Assembly: GCA_964016885.1 (NCBI GenBank)
Contig: OZ024753.1
Span: 31,186,001-31,250,000, forward strand
DNA length: 64,000 nt
Reading direction: 5' to 3'
Origin: Eledone cirrhosa
Taxonomy: Eukaryota
This document shows positions 80-26,711 of this stretch, piece after piece (position 1 is the first letter of the stretch; every line of letters begins with the position of its first letter). The notes beneath the pieces were generated by a model that did no database searches, was not told the origin of the DNA, and saw nothing but the letters and a program-made list of their open reading frames with translations. Made by a program: the position numbers and the translations under genes.

Positions 80-677
80 TTATACTTCTCTTAGGTCAGT
101 GTTGTTTGTTTGGGTGTTGTTGTTGTTCCACTCATTCTTTCTGTTTAGCTTTGGTCTTCTAATTTCTATTTCACTGGCCTCTCTGATTTGCCTATCTGCT
201 GGGTCATTCCTATGCTTAGATATTATTCTAATTTCTATGTTGTCTATGTTACCGTCATGATGTTGTCTAGCATGTTCGTATAGTACTGACCCGTTTTTTC
301 GTCCTTTTAGTTCCCCCCAGTGTTGGTCTATCCTTTCACCTATGCTACGAGCTGTCTCACCTATGTATGTTGTTGTCGTGTTTCTGCAAGTACCCTCTGT
401 ACATCTTATGCTATAGACTACGTTTCTAGTTTTACAGTTTATCCGGGGGTTCACCTTACATATGATACATTTCCTATTGGTACAGTGGGTTTTCTTAAAA
501 GGGTAGGTTTTGCTGATCAGGGATTTTATGGTGGTTCCTGGCTTTTCTACCACCTTTATTTTTAAGTGGGTCTTTCTCAGGGCCTTTCTACACTGGTTAG
601 CTAATTTCCCTCCAGGGGTGGCGTCCACAAACATGACACTCTGATATCTCTGGTTGTCGTACCATGATGTGGCCTTC
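80..677 (-). mobile_element. Penelope-like retroelement, C-terminal linker + GIY-YIG endonuclease (Neptune/Nematis-like); 5' part lost in the assembly gap
   Basis: ORF 80..634 contains a Cx4Cx2C linker (CTNRKCIIC), NVVYSIRC...YIGETARSIGERIDQH (GIY-YIG), a later His motif and EASEIEIRRPKLNRKNE. The frame stays open up to the N-run. Confidence 0.88.
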
Positions 678-877: not shown

Positions 878-1282
878 AGCTTGTTAGCTATCGTCAGCAA
901 CGTATACCTTCCTGTCAGATTGTTGAACGTATATACTTACCTTATGCATATTAACGGCTGAGTAGCCCAATATGCATATCGAGTGGGTTAATCGGCCGGG
1001 TGCACCGAAAACGATAAACGGAAAAAATGAAACGATATTTCATTTCCCACTCTTAGTACGGCTGTTACTTAAATATAAGTATGTACACGTACATACATAT
1101 ATGTATACCGACGTACAGTAGTATGTATATATATATATACATACATGCACACATATATATATGCACGTATGGATTCACCGAACATTTATTATAATGCTCG
1201 GTGTGTTTGTAAACAAACATCCCGTATTAAGCCGTAGTGTCTAGCAACCACCGTTGCTCATTTGTTCAACACTGACAAAGGA

Positions 1283-1325
1283 ACGCTGTACTAGTTTCAA
1301 GCTTGTTAGCTATCGTCAGCAACGT
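1283..1325 (-). ncRNA. Minimal type I hammerhead ribozyme (F1); identical copy at 1705-1747 (-)
   Basis: Reverse complement reads ACGUUG-CUGACGA-U-AGC-UAACAA-GCU-U-GAAA-CUAG-UA^CAGCGU: 6-bp stem I, intact core, palindromic stem III, GUA cleavage triplet. Confidence 0.85.
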
Positions 1326-2305
1326 ATACCTTCCTGCCAGATTGTTGAACGTATATACTTACCTTATGCATATTAACGGCTGAGTAGCCCAATATGCATA
1401 TCGAGTGGGTTAATCGGCCGGGTGCACCGAAAACGATAAACGGAAAAAATGAAACGATATTTCATTTCCCACTCTTAGTACGGCTGTTACTTAAATATAA
1501 GTATGTACACGTACATACATATATGTATACCGACGTACAGTAGTATGTATATATATATATACATACATGCACACATATATATATGCACGTATGGATTCAC
1601 CGAACATTTATTATAATGCTCGGTGTGTTTGTAAACAAACATCCCGTATTAAGCCGTAGTGTCTAGCAACCACCGTTGCTCATTTGTTCAACACTGACAA
1701 AGGAACGCTGTACTAGTTTCAAGCTTGTTAGCTATCGTCAGCAACGTATACCTTCCTGCCAGATTGTTGAACGTATATACTTACCTTATGCATATTAACG
1801 GCTGAGTAGCCCAATATGCATATCGAGTGGGTTAATCGGCCGGGTGCACCGAAAACGATAAACGGAAAAAATGAAACGATATTTCATTTCCCACGATAGC
1901 TAACAAGCTTGAAACTAGTACAGCGTTCCTTTGTCAGTGTTGAACAAATGAGCAACGGTGGTTGCTAGACACTACGGCTTAATACGGGATGTTTGTTTAC
2001 AAACACACCGAGCATTATAATAAATGTTCGGTGAATCCATACGTGCATATATATATGTGTGCATGTATGTATATATATATATACATACTACTGTACGTCG
2101 GTATACATATATGTATGTACGTGTACATACTTATATTTAAGTAACAGCCGTACTAAGAGTGGGAAATGAAATATCGTTTCATTTTTTCCGTTTATCGTTT
2201 TCGGTGCACCCGGCCGATTAACCCACTCGATATGCATATTGGGCTACTCAGCCGTTAATATGCATAAGGTAAGTATATACGTTCAACAATCTGGCAGGAA
2301 GGTAT

Positions 2306-2348
2306 ACGTTGCTGACGATAGCTAACAAGCTTGAAACTAGTACAGCGT
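2306..2348 (+). ncRNA. Minimal type I hammerhead ribozyme (F1); identical copy at 2728-2770 (+), 5'-truncated copy at 1893-1926
   Basis: acgttg ctgacga tagctaacaagctt gaaa ctag ta cagcgt; predicted cleavage after 2342. Confidence 0.85.
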
Positions 2349-2976
2349 TCCTTTGTCAGTGTTGAACAAATGAGCAACGGTGGTTGCTAGACACTACGGC
2401 TTAATACGGGATGTTTGTTTACAAACACACCGAGCATTATAATAAATGTTCGGTGAATCCATACGTGCATATATATATGTGTGCATGTATGTATATATAT
2501 ATATACATACTACTGTACGTCGGTATACATATATGTATGTACGTGTACATACTTATATTTAAGTAACAGCCGTACTAAGAGTGGGAAATGAAATATCGTT
2601 TCATTTTTTCCGTTTATCGTTTTCGGTGCACCCGGCCGATTAACCCACTCGATATGCATATTGGGCTACTCAGCCGTTAATATGCATAAGGTAAGTATAT
2701 ACGTTCAACAATCTGGCAGGAAGGTATACGTTGCTGACGATAGCTAACAAGCTTGAAACTAGTACAGCGTTCCTTTGTCAGTGTTGAACAAATGAGCAAC
2801 GGTGGTTGCTAGACACTACGGCTTAATACGGGATGTTTGTTTACAAACACACCGAGCATTATAATAAATGTTCGGTGAATCCATACGTGCATATATATAT
2901 GTGTGCATGTATGTATATATATATATACATACTACTGTACGTCGGTATACATATATGTATGTACGTGTACATACTT

Positions 2977-4690
<1,714 letters not shown>

Positions 4691-4695
<5 letters not shown>

Positions 4696-5950
4696 AATTG
4701 AAACAAAATGAAAACGAAATTTCATTTCTCACTCTTAGTATGGCACTTACTTAAATGTAAGTATGCATGTATACGTACATACATATATGTATACAGACGT
4801 ACAGTAGCATGCACATATATATATATATATATACATATATACATACATATGCATACAGGTACACATACATATATGCACGTATCAGTTTAGCGGCGCTTAT
4901 TATAACGTCGCTTTGTTCGTTTGTAAACAAACTGAACAGCCTGAATTTATGCCATACGGTGTTAAGGCAACCACGTCACCTTTTTGTTCAACACTGACAC
5001 AGGAACGATGTACTAGTTTCAAGCTTGTTAGCTATCATCAGCACCGTTTACCCATCTGCCAGATAGTTGAACGTTCGAAAGTATATACTTTCCTTATGAA
5101 AATTAACGGCTGAGCAGCCTAATTTGCATATTGAGTGAGTTAAATCGGTCAGGCATACCGAAAACGATAAATTGAAACAAAATGAAAACGAAATTTCATT
5201 TCTCACTCTTAGTATGGCACTTACTTAAATGTAAGTATGCATGTATACGTACATACATATATGTATACAGATGTACAGTAGCATGCACATATATATATAT
5301 ATATACATATATATATACATATGCATACAGGTACACATACATATATGCACGTATCAGTTTAGCGGCGCTAACGTCGCTTTGTTCGTTTGTAAACAAACTG
5401 AACAGCCTGAATTTATGCCATACGGTGTTAAGGCAACCACGTCACCTTTTTGTTCAACACTGACACAGGAACGATGTACTAGTTTCAAGCTTGTTAGCTA
5501 TCATCAGCACCGTTTACCCATCTGCCAGATAGTTGAACGTTCGAAAGTATATACTTTCCTTATGAAAATTAACGGCTGAGCAGCCTAATTTGCATATTGA
5601 GTGAGTTAAATCGGTCAGGCATACCGAAAACGATAAATTGAAACAAAATGAAAACGAAATTTCATTTCTCACTCTTAGTATGGCACTTACTTAAATGTAA
5701 GTATGCATGTATACGTACATACATATATGTATACAGACGTACAGTAGCATGCACATATATATATATATATACATATATATATACAAATGCATACAGGTAC
5801 ACATACATATATGCACGTATCAGTTTAGCGGCGCTAACGTCAGTATTGAACAAAAAGGTGACGTGGTTGCCTTAACATCAGTGTTGAACAAAAAGGTGAC
5901 GTGGTTGCCTTAACACCGTATGGCATAAATTCAGGCTGTTCAGTTTGTTT
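4691..5950. mobile_element. Family F2: tandem 474/466-bp hammerhead-bearing monomers plus a short inverted arm
   Basis: atgaaaacgaaatttc at 4708, 5182 and 5648; homologous to F1. Inversion at ~5838 with a ~39-nt duplication; joins a family B PLE end at ~5950. Confidence 0.88.
5004..5048 (-). ncRNA. Minimal type I hammerhead ribozyme (F2); second copy at 5470-5514 (-)
   Basis: Reverse complement reads AACGGUG-CUGAUGA-U-AGC-UAACAA-GCU-U-GAAA-CUAG-UA^CAUCGUU. Confidence 0.85.
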
Positions 5951-6266
5951 ACGAACACACAAACACCCGGATGTGGCGCATGCGCAAACTGAGCACGCAA
6001 CCCACACACAAACAAAATGGCGTAGGATAGAAGAAAGGAAACGCACAGAAACGAAGAAAGAAATCCCCAGTCACTGAAGAGGTCACAGAGTGTGTGACGA
6101 AAGAACTGACTATATATATATAAACAACTATCTGGTTTTGGAACCAACCAACCAACCAGAAATTTATAAATTTGTAAATTTATAAATATTTAATAAATTA
6201 AATTGAAGTGAAAGCAACTGGTGCGTGTGTTTCTTATTGGCAACATGACCCTCCCAAAGTATAACA

Positions 6267-6270
<4 letters not shown>
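5950..6270 (+). mobile_element. Family B PLE 3' terminal region (short end); HHR at 6069-6111 lacks 2 nt at the cleavage site
   Basis: Matches 16795-17218, 29685-30282 and 44137-44414. Reads agtca ctgaaga g gtcaca gagtg tgtgac gaaa gaac tgact, versus gaac TA tgact at 44294-44338. Confidence 0.75.
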
Positions 6271-6297
<27 letters not shown>

Positions 6298-6304
6298 AAT
6301 ATAA

Positions 6305-6355
<51 letters not shown>

Positions 6356-6386
6356 TATATATATATAAATATATATATATATAAAT

Positions 6387-6425
<39 letters not shown>

Positions 6426-6828
6426 AATATAAATATATATATAAATATAAATATATATAAATATATATATAAATATAAATATATATATATAAATATGAAT
6501 ATATATATAATTATAAATATATATAAATATATATATAAATATATATATAAATATAAATATAAATATATATAAATATATATATAAATAAATATATATATAA
6601 ATATATATATAAATATATAAATATATATATAAATATATATAGAAATATAAATATATATATAAATATATATATAAATATTTATATAAATATATATATATAA
6701 ATATATATATAAATATATATATATAAATATAAATATATATATATAAATATATATATATAAATATATATATAAATATAAATATATATATAAATATAAATAT
6801 ATTTATATTTATTAAAATAACAGATTAA

Positions 6829-6879
6829 AGTTTAAGCAAAGAATCGCTGCTTTCACCCTTAACGGGATCTTCTGAAACT
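6829..6879 (-). ncRNA. Hammerhead-like motif of family C (variant core CAGAAGA, CUU triplet); also at 30316-30366 (-) and 30461-30511 (+)
   Basis: AGUUU-CAGAAGA-U-CCC-GUUAA-GGG-U-GAAA-GCA-loop-UGC-UU^AAACU. The copy near 54820 has canonical CUGAAGA. Confidence 0.6.
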
Positions 6880-7805
6880 AACAAAGTCAATCTGTAAACG
6901 CAGAACTGGATATTTCAAAAAACTTTGCAACCGGAGGAAGACAGGAAGGCGATACTTTGGTTCGCGGTAATGTTCGCTGGTAAAGAACGGGAAAAAACCA
7001 ATAATACGTCATTAAAAGGAGCGGTGAAAAACAATTACGCGCAAAGACAGAACCACGTTTAGGTATAAAAGAGGTCGTAGACTAATGGTCTCTTAGGTGG
7101 TGCATAGAGACGTTCTCTGGCAATGAACGAAAAAACGAAGATAATAAGTCATATGTGGATCGTGGAGAACAATATCACGCAAAGACAAAACCACGTAAAT
7201 GGCATAGCAGAAGTCGTAGACTAAAATTCTAACTTGGAGACCAAATGAATCTCCTCTACAGAGTTAAGAACAAAGTAAATAAATACAATACAGAAGTAAT
7301 AGAAATAAATAAATACATACACGCAGACAAATACGTACATACACAAGCATACGCAAAACCTTACCATAGCTATACAACCACGCACATATAAATATGTGTG
7401 TGTGTGTGTATGCTTGTGTACAAATAAATAAATAATTATATAAACGTATATAAGTAAATAAATACGTATATAACAAGCGCACACACATACCTACATATAA
7501 ATACACGAATGTTCGGAGACGTAAGTCAACTAAAACAAGAAGTACACATATACACACACCCACCATACGTACGAACCTGCATACTCACGCAGACGCAAAA
7601 CTCCCGTATACACATAGCCAAACCCTAAATACCAGAATATATAAAAATTATACGCCATAACAATCAAATATACGTACGAGAAGGTATACAACCTTCACAA
7701 AATATACAGGTAATATATACTTACCTATGCAAATAAGTAAAGGAATATACAAAACATATACTTAGCTCCCACATCAGGACGTAAAATATCCACGTATAGA
7801 TCGTA

Positions 7806-9002
7806 CTATCCGTTAGGGTATAACGTGGGGCTGTAATACAGGAAAGTTTTGTGCAATTTATGTTTACAAGCCGAAATTGCCTCAGATTTTTTGTTTAAGA
7901 TGTGGTCTGTGGCGTAGAGTATTTCCAGGGCCTCAGCGGCGCAGAGGTCACATGGTCTTTTATTTCCGTTATACGATCTAGCCCTAGCTAGGATCTCCCA
8001 GTGTAACTTATATTGGGTGTGGTTGTCTTTTAGTCTCCGGATATAAGCTGAAAGTGACGTCATATTCCTTCTTAGAGGGTAACGAAAAGAATGGGTATGC
8101 ATGTAAAGACGCTGCTTGAAACTATTGGCGGTTAACCCTATGTAGGCCCTAGGGGACGTGAGTGTTACAACCTTACATTTGTAGACAATGTTACTAGAGA
8201 GGCATTTCCCGGATAGGGGGCAATCAGCCCGATTCCTACAATTACAGTTAGTACTAACTACAGGGTTGCACGTGTTCCTACGGCTAGGTAGTTTAGCTAA
8301 ATTTGAAGCTGTGATGTTATGTGCAAGGTTAGGTGTCGTAGAGTAATCAATTTTAATAGTATTTCTATTAAAAATTTAACTATATTTATGTGTAGGGGGA
8401 AAATGTTTCTTAATAAGGGAAAGAAAGATCTTAGCTAATGGTGTGGCCACCTCCATATTATATGGTGGGTTAAACGAACAAATGCGACGGGATCTATTTC
8501 TTCTAGGTCTATTTTCGTACTCTGTATATGCTACCTTATCGACAAATCCACTTCGAGCAAGAGCTTCGTTGTAATAAGTGGAATGGTCGTTGAAAATGCG
8601 CTCGTTGGTGGAAAGACGGGAAAGCCTCAACGAAACGTTTCTTACCAGGTTCTTGGTTATGCTGGCGGGATGGTTGGAATGCTTACTTATGTAATTAAGC
8701 GTATCAATCGGCTTTCTATACGGGTAATACAACCCATTCAATAAATTGAGGGTAACGTCGAGGTAATTAACGACCGAGAGATTGGCCTCAACCTGTATAG
8801 AGAGGTTGAAGCCTTTAAAGAAGGCTGTGAGTTCTTTTCTGAACCTGTCGCAAGCACGAGGTCCGCACTTAGTCATGGTCAAAAGACCATCGTCACGGTA
8901 CAAACCACCGCCCGCGTTGGAGAATTCGTCCTTGATAGAGAAAAGAAGGAAAAGGCCAATAAGATCAGTAACCTCCGCAGAGTCACTGGCGCCCATACTC
9001 AC
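7806..9002 (-). pseudogene. PLE reverse transcriptase C-terminal half + GIY-YIG endonuclease, one in-frame stop at 8376-8378
   Basis: SMGASDSAEVTDLIG, GLYRDDGL, NYLDVTL, FNPPY, HKYS*IFNRNTIKIDYS, CNCRNRADC (CxCx5C), NIVYKC, AYIGLTANSFKQRLYMH, CDLC, CKH. ORFs 8376..9002 and 7806..8102 share a frame. Confidence 0.9.
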
Positions 9003-9116
9003 GTTCTGTTATTTTAATAAATATTTGCTCTACGGTTCTTATATATTTGATATATATTTATCCTTATCAAGCCCTCTTTGGATTTTAGTCTTCAATTTTA
9101 TTATTATTACTATATA

Positions 9117-9154
<38 letters not shown>

Positions 9155-9161
<7 letters not shown>

Positions 9162-9518
9162 ATTCTTGGGGAGGGTCATTTTATTATAATATTGCCAGAA
9201 ATAATAACAGAGCACACTCACTGTTCGGTTGGTTTTCGCTTCTGTATCTTTTATATCTCCATAGTTAATTTATTTGGCAGTCAATGATATTTATCAGTCA
9301 ATGAAATTTATTTATCAGTCAGTCAATGATAACCATTGATTGCCAAATGAATTAACTATGGATATATAAAAGATACAGAAGCGAAAACCAACCAAACAGT
9401 GAGTGTGTTCTGTTATTATTTCTGGCAATATTATTACAACAATATGACCCTCCCCAAGTATAACAATATTTGTTTCTACAGACGATTTCATATAAAAAAC
9501 CTTGCAAAACAAATCCAT
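9155..9518. mobile_element. Two-armed inverted insertion, family B-related
   Basis: Arms ~9155-9287 and ~9334-9470, plus a ~48-nt tail 9470-9518 similar to the family B tail; both ends in (TA)n. Confidence 0.75.
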
Positions 9519-10668: not shown

Positions 10669-10670
10669 AT

Positions 10671-10888
10671 GGTTTCTACTATAGGTACAAGGACAGCAAT
10701 TTCTTTGGGGTGGGGAAAGTCGATTAAATCGACCCAGTGCATTACTGGTCCTTTATTTTATTGATTCCGTAAGGATGAAAGGCAAAGCTAACCTCGGCGA
10801 GATTTGAACTCAGACCGCAAAGGACCGTAACTCTATGCGGCTAAGGATGTTGTCCAACGCTCTACCGATTCTGCCAATCCACCGCCCT
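10671..10888 (-). mobile_element. tRNA-derived SINE with Meta-domain-like core
   Basis: Reverse complement has A-box-like tggcagaatcggtag, B-box gagttcaaatc and core gcctttcatccttacgg..aataaaataaag.accag. Confidence 0.8.
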
Positions 10889-11381
10889 TTACATATATAT
10901 ATAATACCTATATATATTGCCAATGGTTAAATATCATAGCTGCACTTACAGTTATGTATACCATAAGATCCAGCTATCCCTTTTAAGGCGATTTATTTTC
11001 CATCATCGTTAAACTTTGCAAGGTAATACCGTCACTCTCTTGGTGATTGCAGCAAAAAATCTCTAGCCGTCAAGAACAAGTCATAACTGACAGATAGTCG
11101 GCTTTGGTGGTCCAAATTTGAATATATCCATGAAAACGAAGCTAATACTTGGTATGTTGACTTCCTCTCTTACAAGCCTTAGTAATTATAACACGCATAG
11201 AAATATTTATCATGTTACATTTAATATATCCTTACACAGTCCACGAGTAAAATGAGTATTCATCTGAAGGAAAAGAAAATGTAAATAGAGAAAAAAAATG
11301 CGTTAAATGTATGAATATAAGGGACAAAGATACAGTCATTGCAATACAAAGCGAAAAATGTGGTTATTTGGTAAATACGTC

Positions 11382-12121: not shown

Positions 12122-13025
12122 ATAGTGAACAGACCTATGTTCAAACGTTCCATCCTTCGTTTGTAATAGGTGAACAGACCTATGAGCAAACGTTCCATCA
12201 TTCGTTTGTAATAGTGAACAGACCTATGACCAAACGTTCCATCATTCGTTTGTAATAGGTGAACAGACCTATGTTCAAACATTCCATCATTCGTATGTAA
12301 TAGGTGAACAGACCTATCACCAAACGTTCCATCATTCGTTTGTAATAGGTGAACAGATCTATGATCAAACGTTCCATCATTCGTTTGTAATAGGTCAGCA
12401 GATCTATGATCAAACGTTCCATCATTCATTTGTAATAGGTGAACAGACCTATCACCAAACGTTCCATCATTCGTTTGTAATAGGTGAACAGACCTATGAC
12501 CAAACGTTCCATCATTCGTTTGTAATAGGTCAGCAGATCTATGTTCAAACATTCCATCATTCGTTTGTAATAGGTGAACAGACCTATCACCAAACGTTCC
12601 ATCATTCGTTTGTAATAGGTCAGCAGATCTATGTTCAAACATTCCATCATTCGTTTGTAATAGGTGAACAGACCTATCACCAAACGTTCCATCATTCGTT
12701 TGTAATAGGTGAACAGACCTATGACCAAACGTTCCATCATTCGTTTGTAATAGGTCAGCAGATCTATGTTCAAACATTCCATCATTCGTTTGTAATAGGT
12801 GAACAGATCTATGATCAAACGTTCCATCATTCGTTTGTAATAGGTCAGCAGATCTATGACCAAACGTTCCATCATTCATTTGTAATAGGTGAACAGACCT
12901 ATCACCAAACGTTCCATCATTCGTTTGTAATAGGTCAGCAGATCTATGATCAAACGTTCCATCCTTCGTTTGTAATAGGTGAACAGACCTATCACCAAAC
13001 GTTCCATGATTCGTTTGTAATAGGT
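12122..13025. repeat. 45-bp minisatellite, ~20 units
   Basis: Unit ttcgtttgtaataggtgaacagacctatcaccaaacgttccatca; gives the 15-aa periodic ORF 12091..13092. Confidence 0.95.
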
Positions 13026-24684: not shown

Positions 24685-24870
24685 GTGGATTGGCAGTATC
24701 GGTAGAGCATTAGACGCCGTGCTTTTCAGTATAAAGCTATGGCCCTTTACACTCTGAGTTCAAATCCAGTCGAGGTTAACTTTGCCTTTCATCCTTACGG
24801 GGTTGATAAAATAAAGTACCAGCAATGCACTGGGATAATTGCTGGCCTTGTGCCAAAAGCAGAAACAATT
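24685..24870 (+). mobile_element. tRNA-derived SINE (Meta-like); opposite-strand copy at 25181-25362, fragments at 25612-25691 and 32594-32683
   Basis: ggattggcagtatcggtag...gagttcaaatcc...gcctttcatccttacggggttgataaaataaagtaccag. Confidence 0.8.
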
Positions 24871-26711
24871 ATTTAGTCACTGGTAACCCCTTATCGTGCA
24901 CAACATTGTTATAACAATATAGTACATCAGAGAATACACCAGATATGTGTAATGAACAGGTTTAAATTGAGGGAAAACGGGTTATATTTAGCAGATCGTG
25001 CACTGGTATAGAGACCCGCTCTTAGATTTATTTCCTTAATTATTTCAATTTATATTTTTTGTGTGCTGGATTTAATTTCTGAGAAGTTTTAAGTAGAATA
25101 TGCCTGTGTTGTTTATTTTACGTTCATTTATAAAAGAAATTGTTGTCTGTTAAATTGATAAACCAACTAGGAGAACATAATTTTCTACTTTTTGGCACAA
25201 GGCCAGCAAATACCCAGTGCATTACTGGTACTTTATTTTATCGACCCCCTAAGGATGAAAGGCAAAGTTAACCTAGGCGAGATTTGAACTCAGAATGGCA
25301 AGGGCCGTAACTCTATGCGTCAAAGCATGGCGTCCGACCCTCTACCGATACTGCCAATCCACGAGAAAATAATGTATTGTGAAGTTATTTTATCTTGATA
25401 TTTTGTATTATTTCTGTCGAGTTTCTGCAAGTTTGTATAAATGCAGACGCCCTCTATTGGATTGATCTACCACTTGGTAGATGCTCCAGAAGGCAATTTG
25501 CATTTCATACGTTTATCACTTTCAGTATCATATCTCTAATGAAAGACATTCCCCATCCCTATGTGATACTTTTGAAAATAATCATTATTAAGCTGGTAGT
25601 GATGTGAGCGCAATGGCAGAGTTGGTAGAGTATTGGACAACATGCTTTGTGGCATAGAGTTATGTCCTTTTACGTTCTGAGTCCAAATCCCTTAATCTAA
25701 TTTGAAAACTTCCACTAGTAAATACGATGATCCGCTAGAGCTAGCGGAAAGAGTATTATTCTATTTATATTACTACATTTTCATGTTGCTTGGGTTTCAT
25801 ATAATGTAGAGTTTTCTGTAGAATTTTGCAAGCAAAAGCGAGAATGAAATCCTACCATACGAGACCCTAAATAGCAAATAGTAGAACTACATCTAGACAT
25901 AAAGGTTCGCGGCGAATACGGCAATGAAATAACCTGGAGTAAACAATGGGTACATATTGGCAAGACCCCACAGGGACCCAGTCAAAGACCATAAGGGTGG
26001 TAATTGGAAGCAGCATCAACAATAACAAAAATATAGTGTTAGTGAAAGGGTCATCCATCGAGCGAGGAATTCATTTACACGATGTTGGACAGAGAAAGGT
26101 TTATGAGGTCAATGTCCAGGAGGTCCAAATTCTCAAAGTGTATTATTACTAATGTCTATAGACCTGGCGACCAGATATGTCATTAAGTTAGTGAAAGTGG
26201 TTTAATAAATTACCTGTAATATATTGTCAAGACATGTTCGACTTCTAAACACAATTCTTAAACATTCACTGTGTCCTGACGTATAACATCTGAAGAAAAC
26301 ATTTGAAATATTGATGGATTTAAGTGAATATACGTATTGCATTTACGCCTATTTTTGTTGTTGTTCGATGTAACTTACAGAACACATATATTAGTTAGAG
26401 TGCACAAGGCCTTCAACTGTTTTCCTAGTAGAGTCGAACTTCCTCAAAACCGAGGATCATACACTGATGAATCTTCTATGGGGCAGTATAATATTCTGAA
26501 TATGTTCTATCAGAGCTGAAGTCCAGCGAAAGCACGCATTGCTGAAACATGCTGAACATGTAACAATATGAATAAACCTATATTATACAAGACCTTACTG
26601 TAGATATTGAGTTCCCGTTCTTTTGTTGGCTACTACGGTCACAAAATCAGAAGACCATGCGCCTTATATATATATATATATATATATATCCTTCATTATT
26701 AAGAGTCTGTG

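Follow-up and report, generated by a model that had tools for sequence, protein, structure and literature searches.

The window, the whole 64,000-bp stretch of DNA analysed here, is a (TA)n-rich piece of animal genome. Its positions 4693-6270 hold a composite of two repeat families: a hammerhead-bearing tandem repeat (F) and what reads as the 3' end of a Penelope-like element, or PLE (B). The parts of this composite and its flanks are listed below; signed positions in the F arm are counted from the predicted hammerhead cleavage site.

2977..4692, (TA/TAAA)n tract, left flank and target of the composite (A/T at 1715 of 1716 bases)
4693..5841, minus strand, F2 retrozyme-like array, about 2.46 units of 466-474 bp (tandem repeat and alignment)
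4696..4755, minus strand, F 'tail', the 60 nt that set the long 3' end apart from the short one; the left arm stops at the long end
5011..5041, minus strand, type I hammerhead core of F2 unit a, with cleavage predicted between 5011 and 5010
5477..5507, minus strand, type I hammerhead core of F2 unit b (Rfam Hammerhead_HH9, 18.5 bits, E 0.029)
5839..5841, head-to-head inversion point, with a 3-nt microhomology or overlap
5839/5840..5877, plus strand, F sense arm copy 1 (+13/+14 to +51), a 38-nt duplication with one mismatch at 5845
5878..5952, plus strand, F sense arm copy 2 (+14 to +88), 75/75 identical to the array
5952..5963, plus strand, F/B junction zone, A/C-rich on either side
5953..6270, plus strand, B, a 5'-truncated putative 3'UTR/pLTR of a PLE, stopping at the short end (about 6270)
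6069..6112, plus strand, minimal hammerhead of B, 5-bp helix I and 6-bp helix II
6245..6270, plus strand, putative PLE ORF start inside the pLTR (MTLPKYNN...), which in long-end copies extends into the tail
6271..6804, (TA/TAAA)n tract, right flank

The anatomy of the composite was observed directly, as were the hammerhead motifs, end types, tail lengths and B coding start described below. The F2 sense arm (hammerhead +14 to +88) passes into B at 5952/5953 with no (TA)n in between, and B runs to its usual short end in (TA/TAAA)n, both as an earlier note on this DNA had claimed. That note also saw a duplication of about 39 nt in the arm and an arm start about 11 nt past the cut; the duplication is there with a period of 38 (TRF), and the arm does begin just past the cut, with 12-13 nt skipped (+13/+14). 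The breakpoint is blurred, because A/C-rich sequence flanks the junction on each side, and the F alignment reaches 5963 at 96.5%, past 5952/5953. The junction copy of B is 97.9% identical to the copy at 44135-44414, and no remnant of F +89 to +247 was found in the right flank (0 of 128 G/C-containing 10-mers). Of the 25 5'-junction sites inspected in the window, 15 are same-family inversions and 9 are solo copies; the composite is the remaining one and the only direct cross-family join. Neighbouring families elsewhere in the window are kept apart by (TA)n, which lies at the 5' side of seven of the nine solo copies, the other two abutting sequence unique in the window. None of the 24 contig pieces listed spans 5952/5953; with 12,556 further ones beyond the listing, this is no test of the junction. 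Altogether, the junction looks real, and the mechanism proposed for it below is reasonable but unproven. Between the two arm copies, at 5876-5879, the first four bases past the F cut site are recreated; spotted after the fact, this may reflect a cDNA that reached the cleaved end, or chance.

Judged on its sequence, F is a tandem repeat with a canonical type I hammerhead and fits a non-LTR retrozyme, with predicted self-cleavage and a predicted circular RNA. Its retrozyme-like character, already claimed in the earlier note, is borne out by a type I hammerhead in each complete tandem unit, with a 6-bp helix I, a 4-bp helix II and a palindromic helix III; helix I differs between F1 and F2 by one double change. 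The Rfam Hammerhead_HH9 match is weak (18.5 bits against a gathering threshold of 52) and the fold z-scores are modest (-1.3 to -1.7). The units, of 422 bp in F1 and 466-474 bp in F2, are low in GC and non-coding, no ORF is conserved between F1 and F2, and the predicted circle is highly self-paired (67-71%). Apart from the composite, F occurs twice in the window:

878..2976, F1, inverted retrozyme-like insertion, 422-bp units with 0-1 differences; the right arm ends short and the left end is lost in the 200-N gap at 678-877
57882..58457, third F insertion, inverted, with a left long end (57-nt tail) and a right short end

The F2 units differ by 2 substitutions and by as many as two indels, of 2 and 6 nt. 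Since the 6-nt deletion is common to units b and c and absent from unit a, the F2 array is no clean copy of one circle, unlike F1. Comparison of F with the B pLTR gave TA-rich matches and one 11-nt word only, and comparison with nine pLTR-like stretches gave only TA-rich or hammerhead-core matches. The shared word (5520-5530, minus strand, in F; 6125-6135 in B) sits beside the hammerheads and is at about chance level. We rejected F as a deletion or non-autonomous derivative of B, the longest G/C-containing word in common being these 11 nt. The F and B patterns had no match in metagenome contigs, nor the B pattern in viral contigs.

B is, as far as its sequence tells, a PLE 3'UTR/pLTR. The earlier note had already taken it for a PLE 3' end, and rightly so, since it combines a minimal hammerhead with a pLTR and tail that encode an ORF start under coding constraint: over 24 codons, two subfamilies show 14 identical, 6 synonymous and 4 non-synonymous codons, and 7 of the 10 changes fall at third positions. 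The B hammerhead has no Rfam hammerhead match. All three B-type inverted insertions have a 5'-truncated partner and a tail at one end, and two B arms start at, or a few bases past, the B cut (17050, 29838). The junction copy lacks 2 nt across the hammerhead cut (6104-6110) compared with the 44333 copy, either through TA slippage or as the scar of a reverse transcriptase (RT) crossing a cleaved RNA.

The PLE to which B belongs is probably of the Neptune type, Nematis also being possible; the clade features behind this assignment are those of PMC8557442. The candidate coding sequence lies at the left edge of the window:

80..676, minus strand, C-terminus of a Neptune-type PLE, open over 198 codons, with a CX4CxxC linker and GIY-YIG

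The link to B is favoured by two alignments. The 3'UTR of this ORF (1-79) aligns upstream of the 29926 B copy with a score of 53, the best of 500 shuffles reaching 44, and two B peptides match four related full-length N-termini better than all but 4/3000 and 10/3000 shuffles. On the other side, a third B peptide gave no significant match to the same four (396/3000 shuffles), a profile built from 47 long N-termini of the Neptune type was null for the B peptides, and the four N-termini were picked post hoc, by rank and completeness after inspection of the list (P0283, P0285, P0292 and P0295, of similar rank and apparently N-truncated, were omitted). Against the shorter junction copy of B the 3'UTR did no better than chance, 200 of 500 shuffles being equally good, and the match of the B N-terminal peptide to P0030 alone was unconvincing. 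Pfam gave no match on three PLE fragments, and the best named protein match of a retroelement ORF in the window was to Octopus vulgaris (58% identity), which suggests a cephalopod host. Of the RT-coding elements, A (6805-9110) lies closest, but its different ends, Hydra-like motifs and 89-nt tail led us to reject it as the source of the B ORF. The Neptune-type ORF, with its B-like 3'UTR, faces F1 in the same orientation across the 200-N gap (1-2976). A gap of 200 N is a default size of scaffolders. As exactly 200 N separate the two, they were not counted as a second fusion; 1-2976 may be another F/B-type composite, which the gap makes unprovable.

The remainder of the window is crowded with repeats. 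At least 8 families with PLE-like ends or hammerhead-like cores lie in (TA)n over 1-64000, with tails of 39-89 nt depending on the family:

6805..9110, minus strand, family A PLE, unrelated neighbour and control family (RT and GIY-YIG, Hydra-like motifs, internal stop, 89-nt tail)
6805, 29157, 30287, 46700, 54633, family A copies
36665, 45848, 55119, family C copies
15540, 16335, 23744, family D copies
16722, 19820, 29590, family H copies
34080, family G; 42144, family K; 60992, family E

A 45-bp minisatellite of 20 copies occupies 12125-13025, and an abundant SINE-like dispersed repeat is found at 10669-10891, 24685-25362, 48161-49524 and 61393-63334, several copies being in inverted clusters. 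Amid these repeats, a coding exon of a host receptor gene (46936-47691) encodes an ANF_receptor ligand-binding domain (Pfam E 7.9e-25). Microsatellite miRNA matches dominated the Rfam scan of the whole window.

We then considered how F inserts. All three F insertions are head-to-head inversions in (TA)n targets, joined through 2-3 nt overlaps as in the PLE families, and F has two recurrent 3' ends, long at 4696 and 57882 and short at 2976 and 58457 (two copies each). One long and one short end were found in 13/13 same-family inverted insertions with both ends visible (3 of B, 4 of A, 2 of C and one each of H, G, K and F; F1, with its left end in the gap, was excluded). The inversions together with the alternative long and short 3' ends indicate that F is handled by PLE machinery. 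That F inserts with PLE-type machinery is our best-supported and firmest result, and it is independent of the junction. The tail lengths go further: the F tails measure 60 and 57 nt and those of B 60 and 60 nt, as against 50, 89, 68, 81, 80, 72 and 39 nt in seven other families or subfamilies. We estimate that F and B would match in this way by chance about one time in eight. Tail length thus points to B as the partner of F, and either the protein or the RNA may set that length. Against B as partner, tail length varies within the B clade, the subfamily at 9154-9514 having 50 nt, and the F and B tails have no evident common fold.

We propose, leaning only slightly to this side, that 4693-6270 arose as a single B-driven mixed insertion, whether by a template switch or from a read-through RNA. 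In the form that we put forward tentatively, short of an even chance, a B-type (Neptune-like) PLE RT/GIY-YIG protein would have made a single insertion at (TA)n by switching templates. The first strand would be primed at the F long start site, and 2.46 F units would be copied from a multimer or circle. The second would be primed at the B short start site, and about 318 nt of B RNA would be copied before the RT jumps, at the A/C-rich motif, onto F RNA near +88. It would then stall at +14 inside the extended helix I, return to +51 and recopy to +13, and this arm would be joined to the first through the 3-nt microhomology. We infer the single event, the order of the jumps and the identity of the RT from several features. 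The left end of the composite is the long one of F and its right end the short one of B, as a single event predicts under the 13/13 rule. The F tails equal those of B and differ from those of other families, no F remainder lies past B, and all three F inversions show the short overlaps of PLE families. Moreover, the 38-nt recopy is a second jump in the same arm, which favours template switching. It is echoed among the pieces listed from run X1 by a contig (depth 15.7) holding another F inversion, with an arm start at about +18 and a short recopy. Both F and B have very high summed depth in X1, which is not copy number. Since F has no sequence in common with B beyond the 11-nt word, it would have hijacked the B protein instead of deriving from B by deletion.

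Several claims of the earlier note change in strength in this light. A PLE RT switching templates, as it had proposed, is plausible; read-through, or nesting followed by deletion, would yield an identical sequence. Its self-cleaved monomer fares poorly as template: the arm start is 12-13 nt from the cut and the left arm is a 2.46-mer crossing two hammerheads, the X1 arm at about +18 being in its favour. Among the three F sense arms in the window, one truncation point is near the cut (+13/+14) and the others are at -28 and -106. The start falls within the extended helix I, so that a structural stall would account for it no less well than an RNA end. The claim that the junction identifies the autonomous partner was overstated, as it rests on one junction in a type of tract targeted by many PLE families; the pointer to B comes from tail length.

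Other histories have to be weighed on the same features. A B-driven insertion could do without a switch in trans if B already followed an F array at some donor locus; both arms would then come from an F-F-F-B read-through transcript, which the last hammerhead may have trimmed. This would account for an arm starting just past the cut, the non-identical F2 units suit a linear multimer template, and the long/short arrangement and tail lengths fit equally well; retrozyme arrays are highly transcribed (PMC7229834) and pLTRs are able to mobilise unrelated flanking sequence (PMC3846280). However, the arm leaves out the 12-13 nt next to the cut, and the repeated breakpoint copies that read-through predicts were absent from the window and from the pieces listed from X1, X4 and X5; we regard this history as unlikely. 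An assembly or chimeric-read artefact is less probable still. The region is indeed repeat-dense, with the gap at 678-877 and near-perfect inverted arrays, and no contig among the pieces listed bridges the junction, but the longest G/C-containing word common to F and B is 11 nt, too short for an assembler and located elsewhere, and the outer ends are biologically typical end sites.

Two successive events are a more serious contender, still short of probable: an inverted F insertion followed by B arriving in or beside its right arm, with at least 159 nt of F lost by target-site deletion or by microhomology-mediated deletion between A/C-rich motifs. F amounts to 3936 of the 64,000 bp, PLE families pile up in the same tracts and both F and B target (TA)n. 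The A/C-rich sequence on either side of the junction suits such a deletion, and microhomology deletions have been described, as has a PLE inserted in another element with microhomology at its 5' join (PMC3846280). Independent events would give F-long and B-short about half the time, 2/2 solo B copies ending short, and a single junction is all there is, with no bridging read among the pieces listed. A further X1 contig (depth 4.18) joins the internal TA tract of B (6124) to F near its long end (5185), in a joint whose kind is unlisted; F/B contacts thus arise also by nesting, and this reciprocal joint speaks against a single event. Yet nesting requires the total loss of F +89 to +247 at a place where other neighbouring families, and most solo copies, keep (TA)n, and it leaves the equal tail lengths unexplained. 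If the origin were nested, the junction would be uninformative on the partner of F. Setting the template switch and the read-through RNA against nesting and artefact, we consider B as the mobiliser of F to have somewhat better than an even chance.

Returning to the mixed insertion, we speculate that a retrozyme without homology to its helper may mimic the two internal priming sites of one Neptune-type PLE, with their 60-nt spacing, co-load with PLE RNA in one dimeric complex and leave mixed insertions behind; we hold this broader scheme to be doubtful. If true, tail length and chimeric junctions would allow retrozyme families to be paired with their autonomous PLEs from genome sequence alone. 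The mobilising RT of animal retrozymes has so far been argued from co-occurrence and pLTR similarity, and the tail-type ends and inversions of F provide evidence for PLE machinery at the level of the insertion itself. A countable test able to name the partner family is offered by chimeric junctions and tail length, which also specify substrates for in vitro work of the kind done with the Anolis PLE. From its single junction, the composite hints at the identity of the enzyme that copies these ribozyme repeats in an animal genome.

A single RT event is known to join two RNAs, with inversion, in L1/U6 template-switch chimeras and in L1 twin priming. The composite differs from these in RT class, in internal priming and in its ribozyme-bearing passenger. 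Among retrozymes, F resembles the metazoan non-LTR type (Cervera & de la Pena 2020, PMC7229834) in its type I hammerhead tandem repeats, low GC, lack of an ORF and highly self-paired predicted circle. It has a U.U pair at the base of helix II like the axolotl HHR_Amex2, and with 422-474 bp its units lie at the top of, or beyond, the 150-450 bp quoted there. Its helix sizes are those of canonical metazoan type I hammerheads, and the minimal hammerhead of B matches the description of pLTR hammerheads (PMC4209133).

That PLEs mobilise retrozymes is already in print. PLEs were proposed as mobilisers in PMC7229834, and animal retrozymes have been argued to be non-autonomous PLE partners from vertebrate co-occurrence and pLTR homology (Li, Clavereau & Pollet 2026, preprint 10.64898/2026.07.22.740005). 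No homology links F to the B pLTR, and the evidence here is instead insertion anatomy and a chimeric junction. Inverted insertions, tail ends and fusions, all seen with F, do not figure in the portion of PMC7229834 available to us. The words 'tail', 'template' and 'junction' do not occur in the abstract-to-discussion text of the preprint, the supplements of which could hold junction data. In the literature covered, with subscription journals outside its scope, we found neither tail-type ends on retrozymes nor a retrozyme/PLE chimera. In the Anolis PLE system in vitro, each of the two strands is cleaved and extended, two internal RT start points delimit the tail, and the main substrate is uncleaved RNA (Frangieh 2024, PMC11167929). 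The insertion-level signature and the candidate partner are what is new here. In EN+ PLEs (Craig 2021, PMC8557442; Arkhipova 2013, PMC3846280; Frangieh 2024, PMC11167929), as in the window, the pLTR and tail overlap the ORF start, the pLTR carries a hammerhead and the targets are (TA)n or AT-rich; the tails are 30-40 nt there and 39-89 nt here. The composite is like the insertions of these elements in being a head-to-head inverted copy with a tail at a single end, and unlike them in that its two ends come from different families.
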